The position numbers and the translations under genes are program-made. Under the pieces are notes generated by a model. The model had not been told where the DNA came from. It saw only the letters and a list, made by a program, of their open reading frames with translations, and made no database searches. A DNA stretch of 46,608 bases from sequence record SRR20825010_448; one strand, written 5' to 3'. Shown here piece after piece: positions 1 through 21,938 of the stretch (position 1 is the stretch's first letter; every line of letters starts with the position of its first letter).

Positions 1-30
1 GCCGGAGAGTAGCGCTACTCTCCGGCCTTT
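1..30. terminator. Perfect 26-bp palindrome (gccggagagtagc/gctactctccggc) followed by tttt; probable intrinsic terminator between convergent genes
   Basis: Bases 1-26 equal their own reverse complement, with a T-run at 27-30. It lies just downstream of the minus-strand atoE stop at 46. The left flank is cut off by the window edge. Confidence 0.7.
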
Positions 31-45
31 ATATTTGGATGGCAG

Positions 46-1353
46 TTAAAGCCAGGTCAGGCCCGCGCTGATAATGATGCCGGTGACGATCAGCAGCATC
101 AGGCAGTAGCCCATGATGTCCTTGGCTTTCAGCCCAGCGATGGCAAGCACAGGCAGAGCCCAGAAAGGTTGTAAGAGATTGGTCCAGGCGTCGCCCCACG
201 CAACCCCCATGGCCACTCTGGATATGTCAGCGCCAAGCTCCTGTGCAGCAGGCAGCATAACCGGCGCCTGAACGGCCCACTGGCCGCCGCCGGATGGCAC
301 GAATATGTTGACCACCCCGGCGCTGATAAAGCTCCAGAATGGCAAGCTCTCGGCGCTCGCAATGGACACAAACCCTGTTGAGATGCTTGCTGCCAGTCCG
401 GAAGCTGTCATTACGCTCATGATGCCGGCGTAGAACGGAAACTGGATAACGATGCCGGCGCCGCCTTTCACGGCTTCATTCAGGCTGGCAAGCAGGCGCT
501 TTGGGGTCTGGTGCAGGATGATGGCAACAAACAGGAACATGAAGTTCACGATGTTCAGGTTCAGCCCGCCACCCTCGATAAAGTATTGGAAGATGAATGC
601 GATACCACTGAACCCGATCAGCCAGGCAAGTGTTCTGCTGTTCTCCAGATAGTCGGCCGGGCGATTGATAACAACCGAAGTGTCGGGCTCATCGTCCAGG
701 ATTTTGGGGTCCGCGTACACGCTGTCTCTTTCGTTGGGCAGCATGAGGCGGTTAACCAGGGGCACAATAATAAAAAGTGCGGCGACGATGGCCAGGTTGA
801 AGAAGGCGAAGATGGTTTCACTGGTGCCGATAACGCCGATCACATCTGCAGTGAAGTGGTTCTCTGTGGCAATCGTCAGTGGGATGGAGCCTGCAAGCCC
901 GCCGTGCCAGACAATGAACCCGGAATAGGCACTGGCAATCAGCAACGGATAGTGTACGCGGATTTGCCGGGCGAGGGCTTTGGCAAACAGCGCGCCGACC
1001 ACCAGGCCAAAGCCCCAGTTGATCCAACTGGCGATCAGCGCGATGAAGGTAACCAGTACAATTGCCTGGCCCGGTGTTCTGGCAAGGCCTGCAATCCGGT
1101 TCAGGATGCCACGCACCAGTGGGGTGCTCGCCATCATGAAGCCGGTGACCAGTACCAGCAGCATTTGCATTGAGAAGGTCAGCAGGTTCCAGAAACCGTC
1201 CCCCCACATCTTTACTACCGCCATGGGGCTATGCCCCTGGAACACCATAGCGGCAACGAATGACAGCAGTGTCAGTATGATGACGAATAGGTAGGGGTCC
1301 GGTAGGTATTTGTCTACCAGACTGACCATAGGTTTGGCTGCTCTGTCTAACAC
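46..1353 (-). CDS. atoE: Short-chain fatty acid transporter (AtoE family)
   Basis: Highly hydrophobic ORF with family motifs YLPDP, WGDGFWNLLTFSMQM, FVPSGGGQWAVQ and AWGDAWTNLLQPFWALP. I placed the start at GTG 1353 after a GGGGGA RBS rather than at the ORF-track start of 1425. Confidence 0.9.
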   Translation of the reverse strand: MLDRAAKPMVSLVDKYLPDPYLFVIILTLLSFVAAMVFQGHSPMAVVKMWGDGFWNLLTFSMQMLLVLVTGFMMASTPLVRGILNRIAGLARTPGQAIVLVTFIALIASWINWGFGLVVGALFAKALARQIRVHYPLLIASAYSGFIVWHGGLAGSIPLTIATENHFTADVIGVIGTSETIFAFFNLAIVAALFIIVPLVNRLMLPNERDSVYADPKILDDEPDTSVVINRPADYLENSRTLAWLIGFSGIAFIFQYFIEGGGLNLNIVNFMFLFVAIILHQTPKRLLASLNEAVKGGAGIVIQFPFYAGIMSVMTASGLAASISTGFVSIASAESLPFWSFISAGVVNIFVPSGGGQWAVQAPVMLPAAQELGADISRVAMGVAWGDAWTNLLQPFWALPVLAIAGLKAKDIMGYCLMLLIVTGIIISAGLTWL

Positions 1354-13339: not shown

Positions 13340-13906
13340 ATGGAGCAAAGTGAAACAAACTCTCAGTTCAACGCGGAATTACTTTGTCCGGCCAAGCCCG
13401 GCGAAGGCGCTCCCTGGGCCTTTATTGTTCTGCCCCGGGAGGCAAGCAAAAAGCTTCCCAGGCGGGGAAGAACAACGGTAGAGGCCAGCCTCAACGGTCA
13501 TCATTTTCAGGTAACGCTCGAGCCCGATGGTCAATTGAGCCATTGGCTAAAGGTGAGCAAGGAACATCTCGAAGCTGCAGGTGTGAGCGTCGGTGATGTT
13601 GTTGATTTGGGCATCAGGCCGGTGGACCAGGAACCTGAACCAGAAGTTCCCTCGGACCTGCAAGAGGCGTTGGAAGCGGCCCCCGAGGCTCGGGTGGTTT
13701 GGAATGAGACAACCACCATCGCGCGTCTGGACTGGATTCATTGGATTGTCTCAGCCAAGCAGGCAAAAACCCGGACGAAGCGAATTAGCGATGCGTGCGA
13801 CATGCTGGCCTCGGGAAAGCGGCGCGTTTGCTGCTTTGATCCTTCAGGGTATTACAGCAAAGCACTCAGTGCGCCCAAGGCGGCGGACACACAGGAGATT
13901 GGATGA
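13340..13906 (+). CDS. YdeI/OmpD-associated family protein (DUF1905 plus OmdA domains)
   Basis: N-terminal beta domain (LPRRGRT, LEPDG...HWL), then VP.DL..AL...W...WI..AKQ..TR.KRI. Start placed at ATG 13340 after GGAGG. Confidence 0.8.
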   Translation: MEQSETNSQFNAELLCPAKPGEGAPWAFIVLPREASKKLPRRGRTTVEASLNGHHFQVTLEPDGQLSHWLKVSKEHLEAAGVSVGDVVDLGIRPVDQEPEPEVPSDLQEALEAAPEARVVWNETTTIARLDWIHWIVSAKQAKTRTKRISDACDMLASGKRRVCCFDPSGYYSKALSAPKAADTQEIG

Positions 13907-15291
13907 GCAAGCCCGTTGTATCAAGCCCCCTGCGGCGAGCTTTCCCGCTTGTCGCAATCCTTTTGCTCACCGCCTGCGATGCGCCACAACTTCTTCCGCC
14001 TGACGCCCGCCTTCCGGACGGCAGTACCTATTCCGGTGATATTCAGGATGGTTACTTTCACGGTGAAGGCGTTCAGGAATTTGCCAGTGGCATGGTCTAC
14101 ACCGGCCAGTTCCAGGAGGGCTACTGGCACGGCCATGGTGAGCTCGAATCTCCGGCGGGTTGGCATTACGAGGGCGAGTTCCAGAAAGGGACGATGTCGG
14201 GACAGGGCGTAATCGAAGACGACGGCAGTCGCTACGAGGGGGAATTCCGGAACGGTGAGTTTCACGGTGAGGGGCGTTACGAAGCCGGTGGCAGTGTCTA
14301 TATCGCTGAGTTTGAAGATGGCGAGCCCGTGGAGGGAAAACACGTTACGGATTACGGCACCTACGAAGGGGAGTTCCGTGACTGGTATTACCACGGGGAA
14401 GGCAGCTACGCCTTTACCGGCGAATCGGAGGATCTGGGTAGCCTCACAGGAACCTGGGAGTTTGGTGAGTTCGTCGACCAGGAAGAGTACGTCGCGGAAG
14501 CACCTGTCCCGGAAGAACCAGCGCTTTTGACTGAGACTGTTCTCGTCGAAGACCGTCGGCGCCTGAGCAACCAGATCGAGAGTCTCGCCCCGGAACAGGC
14601 GGGGGCGGCAGACGCCTACTTCCTGGCCGTGGGTGGCGACGGTACCGAGTCGGTGTTCATGCGCGATATCCAGGTTGCCAAAACTGGCCTTCAGGCGCAG
14701 TTCGATGTGGAAAACCGCATCATCATGCTGCTCAATCACCGGGACTATGAAACGTTTCCTCTGGCTACCCGGCCATCCATTGCCTCAGCTCTGGAGGCAT
14801 TGGATGCGCAGATGAACCCGAAGGAAGACCTGCTCGTGGTTCACTTGGTCAGCCACGGTATGCAAAACGGACAACTGCTGTTGCAGCAACCCGGTATCGA
14901 GTTGCCGAACCTCTCGCCGCAGGATTTTGCGGAAATGCTGGAACCACTGAACGTGCGCCGAAAACTGCTAGTGATTTCCGCATGCTACTCCGGCCAGTGG
15001 ATAGAGCCACTCAAGGACGAAGACACACTGATCATGACCTCCGCCCGGTCAGACCGTACCTCTTTCGGCTGTGGTGATGACTCGGAGATGACCTGGTTCA
15101 CCAAGGCGGTTTATCAGAGTGTGGGGCTGTCATTGGCCGACCCTGATGCCATGTTCGAGAACATCAACCAGCAGATCCGAACCTGGGAAGAAGAGATTGG
15201 TATGGAAGAATCGAATTGGTCCTATCCCCAGTCGCACGTCGGTGAGAACCTGCGTAAGTGGTTGAGCCAGATGTCTCAAACTACGCCATAG
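13903..15291 (+). CDS. C13 (legumain-like) peptidase lipoprotein with MORN repeats
   Basis: Lipobox LLTAC, repeated YxGxFxxGxxHGxG units, catalytic SHG and SACYSG, and TSFGC. Confidence 0.87.
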   Translation: MSKPVVSSPLRRAFPLVAILLLTACDAPQLLPPDARLPDGSTYSGDIQDGYFHGEGVQEFASGMVYTGQFQEGYWHGHGELESPAGWHYEGEFQKGTMSGQGVIEDDGSRYEGEFRNGEFHGEGRYEAGGSVYIAEFEDGEPVEGKHVTDYGTYEGEFRDWYYHGEGSYAFTGESEDLGSLTGTWEFGEFVDQEEYVAEAPVPEEPALLTETVLVEDRRRLSNQIESLAPEQAGAADAYFLAVGGDGTESVFMRDIQVAKTGLQAQFDVENRIIMLLNHRDYETFPLATRPSIASALEALDAQMNPKEDLLVVHLVSHGMQNGQLLLQQPGIELPNLSPQDFAEMLEPLNVRRKLLVISACYSGQWIEPLKDEDTLIMTSARSDRTSFGCGDDSEMTWFTKAVYQSVGLSLADPDAMFENINQQIRTWEEEIGMEESNWSYPQSHVGENLRKWLSQMSQTTP

Positions 15292-15319: not shown

Positions 15320-16540
15320 ATGGACCCGATGATCACAGCCGCTGGCCGAGCGCTTGCGATGGGCGACCCGTTGGCCGCGCTGAACTGCGTTGCCTTGCGC
15401 GACGACGCGCAGTCGCTTGCGCTGCGTGGCATCGCCATGGCTCAGCTCGGAGAACTGGACCGGGCCAGGGTGTTGATAGGCAACGCTACCCGTGCTTTTG
15501 GTTCGCGGGAACCGTTGGCACGTGCAAAGTGCATTGTGGCCGAGGCGGAAATTGCGCTTGCTTCCCGTGATCTCGGCTGGCCATCCCGCAAGCTTGACGC
15601 AGCGCGCGAGGTGCTGGAACAGCATGGCGACCGGGTGAATGCAACGCATGCGCGCTATATCGATATCCGGCGCCGGCTGCTGATCGGTCGACTCGATGAA
15701 GCTGAGCTCGAACTGGGGGTTATGGACGTAGCCTCGTTGCCGCCGGCGTTGAGAGCCATCCATGAACTTATTGTTGCCGGGATCGCTATGCGGCGCCTGG
15801 AAACCCAGGTGGCACGCGATGCGCTCCTGCAGGCCGAACGCGCCTCACAGCACGCCGGTATTCCGGCTCTTGTGGCTGAAGTCGCCAGTAAAGTTGAACT
15901 TCTGGGCTTGCCCGCCGCTCGCCTGACCAGGATGGGGAGTGAGCGGTTGCTGCTTCTAAATGAAGTAGAAGCGTTAATGGCGTCCCAGGCGTTTGTGGTC
16001 GACGGATGCCGTTTTACCGTGAAGCACAAGGAAGCTGTTGTGTCACTCGCGACGCGCCCTTTGCTGTTTGTGTTGCTTCGCATCATGGCTGAAGCCTGGC
16101 CCAAAGAAGCATCCAGAGACGAGCTGATTGCACGGGCGTTTCGCATGAAACAGGCTGATGATTCCCATCGTGCGCGTCTGCGGGTGGAGATCGGGCGCCT
16201 TCGTGAGTTATTGAAGCCGTTGGCAACCGTGGATGCCACCTCACGGGGTTTTGCACTGGTGCCCCATGAGGCGTGCGAGGTGGCCGTCCTGGCACAGCCA
16301 GTGGAGGAAAAGTACGCGCCTATACTGGCACTGCTTTCCGATGGTGAGTCCTGGTCGAGTTCCGCCTTGGCTCTGGCGTTGAATATCGGCCAGCGCAGCG
16401 TGCAGCGGGCACTCGATACGTTAGCGACAGAAGGCAAGGTTTATTCGTTTGGCCGGGGCCGCAACCGCCGCTGGACAACGCCACCCATTGCCGGATTCGC
16501 GACAATCTTGTTACTCCCTGGTTCACTGGCCCTTGGCTAA
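15320..16540 (+). CDS. Transcriptional regulator: helical N-domain, OmpR-type winged helix and a second C-terminal HTH
   Basis: SRDELIARAF...RLRVEIGRLR...RGFAL (OmpR/Trans_reg_C-like) and SSSALALALNIGQRSVQRALDTL...GKV (wHTH). Confidence 0.75.
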   Translation: MDPMITAAGRALAMGDPLAALNCVALRDDAQSLALRGIAMAQLGELDRARVLIGNATRAFGSREPLARAKCIVAEAEIALASRDLGWPSRKLDAAREVLEQHGDRVNATHARYIDIRRRLLIGRLDEAELELGVMDVASLPPALRAIHELIVAGIAMRRLETQVARDALLQAERASQHAGIPALVAEVASKVELLGLPAARLTRMGSERLLLLNEVEALMASQAFVVDGCRFTVKHKEAVVSLATRPLLFVLLRIMAEAWPKEASRDELIARAFRMKQADDSHRARLRVEIGRLRELLKPLATVDATSRGFALVPHEACEVAVLAQPVEEKYAPILALLSDGESWSSSALALALNIGQRSVQRALDTLATEGKVYSFGRGRNRRWTTPPIAGFATILLLPGSLALG

Positions 16541-17264: not shown

Positions 17265-18509
17265 CTAGATGTCTCGTGATTCAAACTCTGTATTGCGCGG
17301 ATCAAGTTCCTCAACCCCCAATCCTGCTTCCGGAGTGACGGTGTAGTACTGCTCCTGCTGCTCCACAGTTGGGTGTTGGCGCTTCGGCCCCGCAACCATG
17401 AACAGGATCAGCCCTCCCAGCATCAGGGCATTGCTGACGAAAAGGCCCCGCGGCCCCAGAAGGTCCATGAACAGGGAACTGACCAGCGGGCCGATGATGC
17501 TGCCAATGCCGTAACTCAGTAACAGTGCTGTGCTCGCTGCGGTGATCTGGTGGGTTTCCATCAGGTCATTGGTGATGGCCACAGCGATGGGGTAGATGGC
17601 AGCACTGATGCCCATGTACAACCCGACAAACAGCACCAGGGCCACCATGCTGATGTTGCCAATAATGGCCGCAGCCAGACTGCACACGGCAGCGACGATG
17701 GCGGCCACCAGCATGACCCGGTATCGGTCGAAGCGGTCGCACAGTTGCCCGATGGGCCAGGCCATCAGCATGGCAGCCACGATGGCCGAAGCCATGAAGT
17801 TGGAGAGCTGCCCGAGGTTCAGGCCAATCTGATTGGCGTACACTGGTCCCATGGCATAGAAGGCACTGATGAGCAGCCCGGCGATCAGTGCGCCGAGCGT
17901 GCCCGTTGGTGACTTGTTATAGAGTTTACGTAATGACAGGCGTTCACCCTGCGAAACCGACGGTGACTCCCGGCGGGTCATTGTCAGGGGGGTGAGGGCG
18001 AGCACCACCAGGATGGTGGCCAGGGAAAAGGGAATAAAGCCCGCCGGGTCGGCGACGCGTATCAATACCTGACCCCCGGCAGTGGATAGGAAGAAGATGA
18101 CCTGGTAAATGGCAAACAGGCTGGCCCGGTTACGGTTGTCGGCCTTGCTGCTGAACCAGCTTTCCATCACGATCATCAGGCCGGCCATTACGAAGCCGCC
18201 CACGGCCCGCAGGCCACCCCAGAGTCCGGCCTGGACGGCCATTGGATAAATCAGAATCGAGGCAGAAAGCACCGCGGCGAAAACCGCGAACGCGCGGATG
18301 TGTCCCACCTTTTCAATGATGCGCCCGGCATAGAGCGTGCCGGCCACAAAGCCGATGGAGTAGAACGCCAGGATCCACCCGATCACACTGGCGCTGAAGT
18401 CTTCGATGCTGAGCCTGAGCCCCAGCAGGGTCATGAGGAAAGCGTTACCCGCGATGAGCAGAATGATGCTCAGGATCAGTGACGTCAGGCTGATGATGGT
18501 TTGCCGCAT
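17265..18509 (-). CDS. MFS transporter (YcaD-like)
   Basis: About 12 TM segments; GHIRAFA, ESW and WPIGQLCDRFDR motifs. Confidence 0.88.
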   Translation of the reverse strand: MRQTIISLTSLILSIILLIAGNAFLMTLLGLRLSIEDFSASVIGWILAFYSIGFVAGTLYAGRIIEKVGHIRAFAVFAAVLSASILIYPMAVQAGLWGGLRAVGGFVMAGLMIVMESWFSSKADNRNRASLFAIYQVIFFLSTAGGQVLIRVADPAGFIPFSLATILVVLALTPLTMTRRESPSVSQGERLSLRKLYNKSPTGTLGALIAGLLISAFYAMGPVYANQIGLNLGQLSNFMASAIVAAMLMAWPIGQLCDRFDRYRVMLVAAIVAAVCSLAAAIIGNISMVALVLFVGLYMGISAAIYPIAVAITNDLMETHQITAASTALLLSYGIGSIIGPLVSSLFMDLLGPRGLFVSNALMLGGLILFMVAGPKRQHPTVEQQEQYYTVTPEAGLGVEELDPRNTEFESRDI

Positions 18510-18683
18510 CAATCGTCGGTCCCCGCTTGTCCGCTAGTCTGGATGTCCGTATAAGTTTGTGGGGTTGTGCGGAAATACTGTAGTGATGGTCTCGCTTGAA
18601 TTAAAGGGGCCCATCCGATCCGTCTGTGGTGTGAATTCGTGCGCTGTTGAGAACAGCGCTTCAGAGGTGAGGTAGAAAGTTCA

Positions 18684-18911
18684 TTGACGCCGGAACAAAT
18701 CGATACCCTGCTGGAAACCATCCCCGACGCCCGTGACGGTCTCACCCGCACGGAGCGGATCATTCTCTATGTGTTACACGAAACCCAGCATGAGTTAAAA
18801 GGTCGTAACGTGCCAACGGTTATGCTCTATGGCCGGGTGGTGGAATACGTCAACATCAGCGAAGCGGAGCTCCATGTCTATCTGGACAGGTTGGGTGTGA
18901 GGGGCGGCTGA
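18684..18911 (+). CDS. Small hypothetical protein resembling the GyrA/ParC N-terminal winged helix
   Basis: 75-aa ORF fills the MFS-nuoA gap, with GAGGTGAGG upstream of a TTG start. IPDARDGL...RIILY matches the topoisomerase IIA motif LPDVRDGL...RRVLY. Confidence 0.7.
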   Translation: MTPEQIDTLLETIPDARDGLTRTERIILYVLHETQHELKGRNVPTVMLYGRVVEYVNISEAELHVYLDRLGVRGG

Positions 18912-18946
18912 GTTGCCCCAGGTCATTGATTTTCGCCGTTCATTAT

Positions 18947-18975
18947 TTGCGCAAACGCTAATCCACTGTTAGGTT
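18947..18975 (+). promoter_or_regulatory. Candidate sigma70 promoter of the nuo operon
   Basis: TTGCGC (18947-52), 17-nt spacer, extended -10 TG-n-TAGGTT (18967-75). The -35 lies within the palindrome tttgcgcaaa. Confidence 0.45.
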
Positions 18976-19014
18976 TCTAGTCAGGGCTTCATCCTGAATT
19001 CATAGGGAGAGCGC

Positions 19015-19431
19015 ATGGCAGACACCGTCACTGACTTGCTGGTCCGCTACTGGGCCACCGGCTTCTTCATCGTTGCCACATTGGGCCTTTGTGCCTTTAT
19101 GGTGGGTGCCTCCAGCTTGCTTGGAGGGCGTAGCCGGGGTGTCAGCAAATCCCTCCCTTTCGAGTCCGGCATCGTCGGCACCGGTGATGCCAGACAACGC
19201 TTTTCCGTCAAGTTTTATCTGGTCGCGATGCTGTTCGTGATCTTCGATATCGAAGCCGTGTTCCTGTTTGCCTGGGCCATTGTCATTCCCGACGTGGGCT
19301 GGACAGGATTCTGGGGCGCGGCGGTTTTTATCCTGATTCTGCTGGCCGGTCTGCTCTATGACAGTCGTACCGGTGCCCTGGACTGGGCCCCGGAATCATC
19401 CAGCGGTAGACCTCGTAGTCCGGCAGGCTGA
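19015..19431 (+). CDS. nuoA: NADH-quinone oxidoreductase subunit A
   Basis: [20 protein letters not shown] and GALDW; GGGAG RBS. Confidence 0.95.
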
Positions 19432-19503: not shown

Positions 19504-20181
19504 ATGTCCTACACACTGACCAGAGCGGAACCTTCGCCGGACGGTGACACGCAATACCCGGTACGGCAACAGGAACCGTCGGAAGATCCGGTGAAACGCC
19601 AGCTTGAACGCAATGTGTTCACCGGCAAGCTGAGCGACGTTCTCAATTCCGCGGTCAACTGGGGCCGCAAGAATTCCCTTTGGCCCTACAACTTCGGGCT
19701 GTCCTGCTGCTACGTGGAAATGACCACGGCCTTCACCGCGCCCCACGACATTGCCCGTTTCGGCTCCGAAGTTATCCGCGCATCGCCCCGACAGGCGGAT
19801 TTCATGGTGATTGCCGGCACCTGCTTCATCAAGATGGCACCGGTGATCCAGCAACTGTACGACCAGATGCTGGAGCCCAAGTGGGTAATCTCCATGGGCT
19901 CATGCGCAAACTCCGGCGGTATGTACGACATCTACTCGGTGGTGCAGGGCGTCGACAAGTTCCTGCCAGTGGATGTGTATGTGCCCGGTTGCCCGCCCCG
20001 GCCAGAGGCCTTTCTGCAGGGGTTGCAGTTGCTGCAGGACTCCATCCAGGAAGAACGCCGCCCGCTGTCCTGGGTGGTGGGCGATCAGGGGGTCTATCGG
20101 GCGGAGATGCCGTCCCAGCGTGAAAAATGGCGGGACCAGCGCATCCAGGCCACCGAACTGAGAACGCCGGACAAACTGTGA
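19504..20181 (+). CDS. nuoB: NADH-quinone oxidoreductase subunit B
   Basis: [10 protein letters not shown] (N2 ligands), [10 protein letters not shown] and PGCPPRPEA. Confidence 0.97.
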
Positions 20182-21938
20182 CAAACGCAACGATGACGAC
20201 AGGCACCGCTGACTTCGAGAGCCTGCTGGGCGATTTTAGAGAGGATGTACTGCATGTACAGCCCACGCTGACGGGCATGCCCGTATTCTGGGTGTCTCGT
20301 GAGAGCATCGTGGATATCCTGACCCACTTGAAGCGGCAGCCAGCGCCATTTTCCATGCTCTATGACCTGTCGGCCGTGGATGAGCGCTTGCGTGGTCACA
20401 GGAACGGTCTGCCAGAGGCTGACTTCACCGTGTTCTACCACTTGCTGTCGGTGGAGCGTAATGAAGACCTGATCCTGAAGGTTGGGCTGCCAGAGAGCGA
20501 TTTGCGGGTGCCCACCGTTAGTAACGTCTTTGCCAATGCCAATTGGTACGAGCGGGAAATCCTGGACATGTTCGGTATCGCCGTCGCCGGACACCCGCAT
20601 CCGGAGCGGATCCTGATGCCGCCGACCTGGACAGGCCACCCACTGCGGAAGGATTACCCTGCCCGGGCCACCGAGTTTGACCCCTATACCCTGACCGTGG
20701 AAGGCCAGGATGCAGAACAGGAAGCCATGAGGTTCGACCCGGAAGCCTGGGGCATGCAGCGTGAACGCGACGGGGCGGAGTTCATGTTCCTCAACCTGGG
20801 GCCCAATCACCCGTCCGCCCACGGGGCTTTTCGCATTGTGCTGCAACTGGACGGTGAGGAAATTGTTGATTGTGTACCGGACATTGGCTACCACCATCGG
20901 GGCGCCGAGAAAATGGCCGAGCGCCAGTCGTGGCACAGCTTTATTCCCTACACCGATCGCATTGATTACACCGGTGGCGTGATGAACAACCTGCCTTATG
21001 TGCTGGCCGCAGAAAAACTGGCCGGTATTGAGGTGCCGGAAAGGGTAAAGGTGATTCGGGTGATGATGGCCGAGATGTTCCGCATCACCAGCCATCTGTT
21101 GTTCCTCGGGACCTACCTGCAGGATCTGGGGGCCATGACGCCGGTGTTCTACACCTTCAGCGACCGGCAGCGGGGCTATGAGGTGATCGAGGGCATTACC
21201 GGTTTTCGCATGCATCCGGCCTGGTACCGCATTGGCGGTGTTATGCAGGACCTGCCTCAGGGTTGGGAAAAACTGGTGCAGGGCTTTCTGGACTGGATGC
21301 CCGCACGTCTGAAGGAATACGAGCGGGCGATGATGGAAAACGCCATCGTGCGCGAGCGGACCCGCCATGTGGCGGCCTTCAATACAGCCCAGGCACTGGA
21401 GTGGGGAGTGACCGGGCCTAACCTGCGGGCTACCGGCTGCGATTTTGATTTGCGTAAGCAGCGGCCTTACTCCGGTTACGAACAGTTCGATTTTGAGGTG
21501 CCGCTGGGTCACAACGGGGATGTGTTCGACCGGGGTCAGTTGCGTATTGATGAAATGCGCCAGAGCCTTCGAATCATTCAGCAGTGCGTTAACAACATGC
21601 CCACGGGTGACTACAAGGCGGATCATCCGCTGACGACGCCGCCACCCCGGGAACGCATGCTCCAGCACATTGAAACCCTCATTACCCACTTCCTGCAGGT
21701 GTCCTGGGGGCCGGTACTGGAACCCAATGAATCCCTGCAGATGATTGAGGCCACCAAGGGCATCAACAGTTATTACCTGACCAGTGACGGCAACACCATG
21801 AGTTACCGTACCCGCATCCGCACCCCGAGTTTCCCGCACCTGCAGCAGATACCGGCGGTAATGCGCGGAGGCTTTGTGCCGGACCTGATCGCCCACCTGG
21901 GCAGTATCGACTTTGTGATGGCAGACGTGGACCGCTGA
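20178..21938 (+). CDS. nuoC: NADH-quinone oxidoreductase fused subunit C/D
   Basis: NuoC motifs ANWYERE and GHPLRKDYP fused to NuoD motifs [20 protein letters not shown] and [12 protein letters not shown] 20178 overlaps the nuoB stop; ATG 20193 is an alternative start. Confidence 0.95.

Follow-up and report, generated by a model that had tools for sequence, protein, structure and literature searches.

The locus and the mini-protein gene

A gene of 75 codons, whose product is referred to here as the mini-protein, lies between a transporter gene of the MFS family and nuoA in sequence record SRR20825010_448. The window is the whole stretch of this record that was analyzed, 46,608 nucleotides (nt) in length. 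The mini-protein is very probably real and expressed, a small protein belonging to a large family that had not been described before. It very probably branched off long ago, as a stand-alone protein, from the N-terminal three-helix core of the GyrA/ParC DNA gate in bacterial type IIA topoisomerase A subunits. The original prediction, made from the letters alone, had described an open reading frame (ORF) of 75 amino acids (aa) with its own ribosome-binding site and a clean stop. This description holds, and the peptide reads as it was quoted. The features at the locus are as follows.

17265..18512, minus strand: MFS transporter gene, divergent from the mini-protein gene
18527..18555, plus strand: possible sigma-70-type promoter, a weak call read by eye (TTGTCC, 17 nt, TATAAG)
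18572..18997, plus strand: whole contig of 426 nt assembled from an RNA sequencing (RNA-seq) library (run X12, record 3), distinct from those that cover nuoA and the MFS gene
18644-18662, plus strand: perfect palindrome GCGCTGTT-GAG-AACAGCGC, just upstream of the ribosome-binding site
18664..18672, plus strand: Shine-Dalgarno-like GAGGTGAGG, 11 nt before the TTG, read from the sequence
18684..18911, plus strand: mini-protein gene, 75 codons, TTG start and TGA stop, from the ORF list and its translation
18723..18743, plus strand: codons of P14-L20 (PDARDGL), equivalent to GyrA P35-L41, with family columns 96-100% conserved
18816..18845, plus strand: codons of residues 45-54 (TVMLYGRVVE), the helix equivalent to GyrA alpha3 according to hhalign
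19015..19431, plus strand: nuoA, downstream of the mini-protein gene, followed by nuoB and a fused nuoCD (Pfam)

The TTG is the earliest possible start downstream of the in-frame stop that precedes the gene, and its 11-nt distance from GAGGTGAGG is near the upper limit of what is usual. A consensus scan around the gene called neither a promoter nor a terminator. The scan misses TTGTCC-17-TATAAG because its rule demands T as the sixth base of the -10 hexamer. The palindrome is found only in the window and is absent from 77 other Marinobacter upstream regions. No Rfam match was obtained within 18300-19200, and the leader of the gene has no significant RNA structure (5' region fold z -0.54). A long open frame runs antisense to the gene at 18509-18763 on the minus strand, and 34 of the 61 distant loci have antisense frames as well. 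Its behavior is that of a shadow cast by the coding frame in DNA rich in GC, not that of a gene.

Selection, distribution, and transcription

The mini-protein gene is a genuine gene under strong purifying selection. The median pairwise ratio of nonsynonymous to synonymous substitution (dN/dS) among 107 Marinobacter-type coding sequences is 0.062, taken from the 2955 of 5671 pairs with 0.1<dS<2, and the same calculation on the shifted frames gave 1.93 and 2.98. In these 107 sequences, the variability at the three codon positions is 0.09, 0.03, and 0.41, which places the variation at third positions.

One copy of the gene is carried by 133 of the 151 genomes in a sample of the marine genus Marinobacter, including 112 of the 123 high-quality ones. 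A sample of the class yielded true family members in 8 of 400 genomes, with expect values (E) from 7e-37 to 2e-33, and a phylum-wide sample yielded members in 4 of 401 genomes, three of them within the same genus. A word-indexed search returned 587 proteins of 41-132 aa at E<=1e-3. Its best matches are Marinobacter proteins named as hypothetical, and a few carry the automatic name 'DNA topoisomerase (ATP-hydrolyzing)'. HMMER was run exhaustively against 1.84 billion representatives of clusters at 50% identity and recovered 356 clusters at E<=1e-3, of which 173 reach E<=1e-10, and lengths in the best 150 of the 356 run from 57 to 176 aa. A search seeded with the divergent member P0179 uncovered a second subfamily of 2539 further proteins at E<=1e-5, almost all metagenomic, for which the Atlas suggests Pseudomonadota and Myxococcota. 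Neither Pfam nor NCBIfam has a model for the family, and full-text literature searches, which did not extend to subscription journals and supplements, returned no published description of it.

The proposal of an independent small family is borne out by conserved stand-alone homologues and a dN/dS well below 1. The existence of a new stand-alone small-protein family from the DNA gate of gyrase and topoisomerase IV (topo IV), near-core in Marinobacter and widespread in metagenomes, is a solid result and a modestly surprising one. Open frames of 375-478 aa surround the gene in some genomes and were considered as possible fusions. They were rejected after three loci were read: the upstream part appears to be free of stops, encodes no recognisable protein, and lies ahead of the real start. 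A fourth locus contained no match to the motif.

The ORF is covered by contigs assembled from RNA-seq libraries (4 runs, 2 studies). The contig from run X7, which belongs to the other study, likewise starts at 18572. Contigs of this kind cannot prove transcript ends and may include DNA carry-over; they are a weak hint that the gene has its own transcript. The TTGTCC-17-TATAAG element at 18527-18555 would fit a transcript beginning near 18572.

Sequence relationship to GyrA and ParC

A likeness of the peptide to GyrA/ParC had been proposed from inspection. With the single sequence, this likeness is marginal. The match to Pfam PF00521 is below threshold (E 0.0051, 16.2 bits, cut-off 31), as is that to the NCBIfam gyrA model TIGR01063 (E 0.056, 11.3 bits against a cut-off of 877). 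BLASTP of the mini-protein against the GyrA of the nearest genome gave 11/42 identities with a pairwise E of 2e-5, and a single-sequence search of solved structures stayed at noise level, with phage gpW at E 0.59 and GyrA at E 0.88.

Family profiles support the relationship at a profile-profile probability of 95-97%. An alignment of 112 representatives of the family (A1) was compared with the N-terminal regions of 20 gammaproteobacterial GyrA proteins (A2). The A1 consensus is LPDVRDGLTRxERVVLYVLxETQKERGGRNVPTAMLYGRVxEHxxISxxELxxxLxRLG. PF00521 is matched at E<=0.01 by 48 of the 112 members, and a search of solved structures with the family profile placed GyrA/ParC chains best, at E about 0.009 and over 25-29 residues only. 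Against GyrA N-termini of other genomes, hhalign gave 96.7% (E 4.5e-10, residues 8-55). A second comparison with GyrA N-termini gave 95.1% (E 2.9e-8, residues 6-55 on GyrA 27-76), and the value was still 95.8% after removal of one chimeric row (P0240). Residues 9-55 of the mini-protein are homologous to GyrA 30-76. The pairing of TVMLYGRVV with SARVVGDVI, which had been drawn by eye, is exactly the one made by hhalign (G50=G71). At eleven positions, the mini-protein family and GyrA have the same consensus residue at a level of at least 80%: P14=P35, D15=D36, V16=V37, R17=R38, D18=D39, G19=G40, L20=L41, R25=R46, L28=L49, G50=G71, and V52=V73. The 20 GyrA sequences show the same consensus residues as the PDARDGL stretch.

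The class survey provided an unplanned control. A match at E<=1e-3 was found in 243 of 400 genomes, a tally that takes in two genomes flagged as unpublished (G309 and G142). Among the matches listed besides the 8 true members, E was 9e-6 or weaker, the profile positions were about 14-62, and most lay in open frames of about 850-900 aa. A GyrA-type N-terminus, from the gyrA of the genome itself, was present in 22 of the 24 survey loci that were read (L001, L002, L093-L114). When the relatives of the mini-protein are included, chance no longer accounts for its likeness to the first part of the GyrA/ParC domain.

The likeness is shorter than the whole length, over which it had seemed to run. The profile alignment reaches residue 55, and the last helix (60-70) matches the quinolone-resistance helix of GyrA by position and not by sequence. 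No ungapped offset between these two helices scores positive; the best, offset 22, which pairs R69 with R91, scores -0.6. The mini-protein is 23-26% identical to GyrA, in agreement with the view that it has diverged too far for a recent fragment of gyrA. The statement that no further gyrA-like sequence flanks the gene also stands, since tblastn of GyrA 1-525 against the whole window returned only the mini-protein ORF (E 0.11) and scattered noise.

The metagenomic protein P0240 was considered as an intermediate between GyrA and the mini-protein and was rejected. It shares its first 47 residues, without a difference, with a true GyrA fragment, P0418, and from there on reads as a mini-protein; its contig has only 582 bp. 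The most likely origin is a chimera made in assembly, with its parts meeting at the shared stretch coding for PDVRDGL. Two other GyrA fragments from metagenomes, P0460 and P0468, have a Cys-led insert after the active-site Arg-Tyr that resembles an intein at the catalytic tyrosine.

Residues kept and lost

In the 20 GyrA sequences of A2, whose numbering coincides with the E. coli numbering of the papers cited here, the residues R32, R46, R47, A67, G71, H78, H80, R91, R121, and Y122 are invariant. Arg32, Arg47, His78, and His80 are described as essential for catalysis in PMC2094056, and PMC4018983 states that the R32A mutant is inactive and that R91 helps stabilise DNA in GyrA. The C-terminus of the mini-protein corresponds to about GyrA residue 95, and R121-Y122 is absent, which agrees with the earlier remark that the protein ends before the catalytic Tyr. 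The R32 position is E11 in the window protein and mostly D in the family, so it is acidic; the R47 position is I26 in the window protein and V/I in the family. EYVNIS stands where GyrA has the GKYHPHG stretch, and H78 and H80 are without a conserved counterpart. From the PDxRDGL(KP)xxRR motif, PDARDGL and R25 are kept, together with G50 of the alpha3-like helix (96-100% in the family), and KP and the second Arg are replaced. The mini-protein cannot be a topoisomerase or cleave DNA, since Tyr122 is missing and nothing in it corresponds to R32, R47, or YHPHG. The architecture of GyrA, a single chain of about 800 aa with a tower, a coiled-coil C-gate, and a C-terminal beta-pinwheel, is likewise absent from a protein of 75 aa.

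The conserved residues of the family (85-100%) are PDxRDGL, T21-R22, E24-R25, Q35, E37, R41-N42-V43-P44-T45, and nearly all of helix 45-54. Within this alpha3-like helix, M47, L48, G50, R51, V52, and E54 are conserved at 85-99%. Its i, i+4 positions are occupied by Gly in 99% and by Ala in 65% of members, with Val in the window protein, and this Ala/Gly pair is inferred to correspond to A67/G71 of the GyrA alignment. Helix 60-70 is the most variable helix and has E/D at positions 61-62. The core is near neutral, with a median net charge of -1 and an isoelectric point of 6.2.

Predicted fold

The AlphaFold2 model of the window protein has a predicted local distance difference test score (pLDDT) of 90.4 and contains helices at 3-12, 22-37, 45-52, and 60-70, with the chain stopping 5 residues beyond the last helix. 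The AlphaFold model of a member of the other subfamily has a pLDDT of 78.7. Both models show three core helices with helix-turn-helix (HTH) geometry. The extra N-terminal helix of the first model is missing from the second, and the N-termini of the family vary in sequence and length. No strand, and hence no beta-hairpin wing, is predicted in either of the two models, and the label 'winged helix' given to the protein earlier is therefore too strong. The N-terminal winged-helix (CAP-like) domain of GyrA/ParC (PF00521, about 100 residues) and the mini-protein have their helices in collinear order. Unlike GyrA, which has more than 800 aa, the mini-protein has 75 aa and is without the wing, Arg121-Tyr122, the tower, the coiled coil, and the C-terminal domain.

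On superposition, residues 1..75 of the model correspond to GyrA 22..106. A Foldseek comparison had been suggested as a check. For both models, type IIA topoisomerases rank on top (topo II of African swine fever virus and of human, and E. coli GyrA), with template modeling (TM) scores of 0.55-0.70 normalised to the query, a root-mean-square deviation of about 2 A, and 59-66 columns; neither model has a match at E<=0.001. These topoisomerase rows at the head of the lists are suggestive only. An unbiased scan of 48,161 chains returned assorted winged-helix domains only in its top 50. A three-helix fold of this kind is generic, and what links the protein to GyrA in particular is the sequence profile.

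Gene neighborhood and mobility

The position of the gene just upstream of nuoA is incidental, as had been suspected. nuoA occurs within 4 kb of the gene in 4 of 88 loci and the MFS gene in 1 of 88. Clustering of neighboring ORFs found no widely recurring neighbor in 80 Marinobacter loci or in 61 more distant loci. The most recurrent neighbors are a proton-pumping pyrophosphatase (4 loci), a DsrC/TusE-like protein (3), and a small membrane protein (3). In three distant loci of different families (L087 931-1254, L091 929-1237, and L177), the small DsrC/TusE-like protein is encoded on the same strand as the gene, about 300 nt further downstream.

A PAS-GAF-GGDEF protein is encoded on the same strand in 8 of 77 Marinobacter loci, where it begins only a few bases after the gene. 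These loci belong to one Marinobacter subgroup (L039, L045, L049, L050, L053, L060, L061, and L063). The protein is a diguanylate cyclase of 441 aa, encoded at about 4210-5535 in L061, and the two genes may form an operon. One database protein, P0131 (176 aa), reads as a fusion of the mini-protein with the PAS-GAF-GGDEF protein.

Viral contigs gave 58 pattern matches to the family, none of which was confirmed, and no plasmid match was found. PADLOC had 0 hits for 8 members, and PHROGs gave weak 'DNA topoisomerase II' hits only (E 0.025 and 0.046). The 78 Marinobacter upstream regions contain no conserved LexA-type box and no conserved operator-like palindrome.

Proposed function and alternative explanations

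Three putative roles had been put forward earlier: a DNA-binding protein, a gyrase modulator, and a decoy for gyrase-targeting toxins. The pattern of conservation is the chief clue, and the preferred, tentative reading of it is a non-catalytic mimic of the DNA-gate surface of gyrase or topo IV. Constraint is strongest on the loop, on the beginning of helix 2, and along the entire alpha3-like helix, parts whose counterparts in gyrase sit at the two-fold GyrA-GyrA interface beside the cleavage site. Docking by protein-protein contact is proposed because constraint falls on these interface-equivalent parts and the helix that would read DNA is acidic and least conserved. The mini-protein would dock on a subunit of gyrase or topo IV, in the place of the partner GyrA/ParC domain, and could tune assembly of the enzyme or opening of the gate. 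The contact would be made by helix-helix packing, and self-pairing through the same alpha3-like helix would also be possible. In its specific form, the proposal is that a truncated ancient GyrA/ParC paralogue docks via the PDxRDGL loop and the Ala/Gly alpha3-like helix and controls gate closure or the assembly of gyrase/topo IV. This form is possible but doubtful. If true, it would represent a new class of endogenous gyrase regulator that acts by subunit mimicry.

Several observations weigh against mimicry. The residues of the loop and helices could be conserved purely for the folding of a small domain. R25 (=R46) is kept, as is possibly R69 (=R91), which also fits DNA binding. The N-terminal helix, which would match the N-terminal arm of GyrA, is not conserved. 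The gene is sparse beyond its genus (8/400 in the class sample and 4/401 in the phylum sample), and most bacteria therefore run gyrase without the mini-protein. It is also unlinked to gyrA, gyrB, parC, and parE. In the nearest genome, where gyrA and parC are both complete, the mini-protein gene is located at 3.67 Mb, far from gyrA (1.32 Mb) and parC (0.11 Mb).

A serious alternative, although a somewhat unlikely one, is that the protein is a small DNA-binding HTH protein, a transcription factor or nucleoid-associated protein with a topoisomerase-derived fold, probably dimeric and with no link to gyrase. The invariant Arg equivalent to GyrA R46 is consistent with this, R69 (83%) may be the equivalent of R91, and the gene is monocistronic with its own upstream region, as small regulators often are. 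However, helix 60-70, the canonical recognition helix, shows the lowest conservation of all and has acidic residues at 61-62. Neither model has a wing, and the charge of the core is about -1. In addition, no conserved target gene adjoins the gene, and neither an operator-like palindrome nor a LexA box is conserved in the 78 Marinobacter loci. Compared with small winged-helix/HTH proteins such as PefI and the MarR/Fur-type domains, the mini-protein is without a wing and has an acidic, poorly conserved recognition helix. Unlike in those proteins, its strongest conservation is on the loop and helices 2 and 3.

A protein-protein adaptor unrelated to topoisomerases also deserves serious attention, although it is unlikely. 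Here the mini-protein would be a generic three-helix module comparable to the interaction modules RPA32C, Stn1, and the cullin WHB domains, and the GyrA-like motif would be kept only for the fold. Several of the top structural matches in the scan of 48,161 chains are indeed protein-binding winged-helix domains, and the conserved D15, R17, D18, E37, R41, R51, and E54 could form a structural salt-bridge network. The same-strand PAS-GAF-GGDEF protein directly downstream in 8 of 77 Marinobacter loci would suit an adaptor, but no neighborhood partner is conserved across genera. This explanation also leaves open why exactly the invariant GyrA positions survive such divergence.

It is very unlikely that the mini-protein serves in immunity or as a decoy, by sequestering toxins or antibiotics directed against the DNA gate of GyrA/ParC. 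It does present part of a GyrA surface that is targeted by natural products and toxins, among them simocyclinone, whose contacts are described in PMC4018983. Stand-alone chromosomal protectors of gyrase also exist, for example the pentapeptide-repeat proteins (PMC10886550). However, the compound-binding GyrA residues K42, H45, H80, S83, and D87 are not kept, and no toxin, antitoxin, or biosynthetic genes are conserved nearby. The family was not found on plasmids or viral contigs and belongs to no defence family, and a near-core, single-copy gene within one genus fits a housekeeping role better than conflict.

A decaying gyrA/parC fragment or a chance functionless ORF, which the short length and the weak scores of the single sequence would allow, is refuted by a dN/dS of 0.06 with a correct-frame signature, thousands of homologues of conserved length, the lack of gyrA remnants flanking the gene, and the intact gyrA and parC elsewhere.

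Relation to known gyrase modulators

Gyrase and topo IV, both essential, are important targets of antibiotics, and the known endogenous proteins that regulate them are few. A 2024 review of the protein inhibitors of gyrase covers ParE, CcdB, TsbT, microcin B17, phage peptides, FicT, pentapeptide-repeat proteins (Qnr/MfpA), YacG, MurI, and GyrI/SbmC (PMC10886550). None of the gyrase regulators in that review is derived from the enzyme itself, and the word 'winged' is absent from it (PMC10886550). The known modulators are small, some are encoded by stand-alone chromosomal genes, and they act by binding and not by catalysis, which is similar to the mode proposed for the mini-protein. The mini-protein has no sequence or fold relation to any of them.

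A comparable logic exists in the microProteins of eukaryotes (plants and animals), short paralogues that keep only an interaction domain and titrate a larger protein. The mini-protein is similar in that it is a truncated paralogue with the interface kept and the catalytic or effector parts gone, and titration by it is hypothetical. The full-text searches returned no bacterial example of a topoisomerase microProtein.

The family keeps invariant residues of the GyrA gate surface over deep divergence and discards the catalytic ones. If the mini-protein binds gyrase and changes supercoiling, as the gate-mimic reading would predict, it would offer a natural handle on the DNA-gate interface, the surface exploited by newer gyrase inhibitors. 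Otherwise, it would still be a clear case of an enzyme domain that has become a small protein in its own right. In both cases, the family deserves a name to replace 'hypothetical protein' and the automatic label 'DNA topoisomerase (ATP-hydrolyzing)', which is misleading.

Other genes in the window

In the window, a nuo operon with a fused nuoCD begins right after the mini-protein gene. Three further reading frames are listed below.

20127-21938, plus strand: fused nuoCD, an ORF of 603 aa with Complex1_30kDa and Complex1_49kDa
15320-16540, plus strand: ORF of 406 aa with no Pfam family at E<=1e-5
13903-15291, plus strand: protein of 462 aa with MORN repeats and a Peptidase_C13 domain (legumain/caspase-like), with a lipoprotein-like N-terminus
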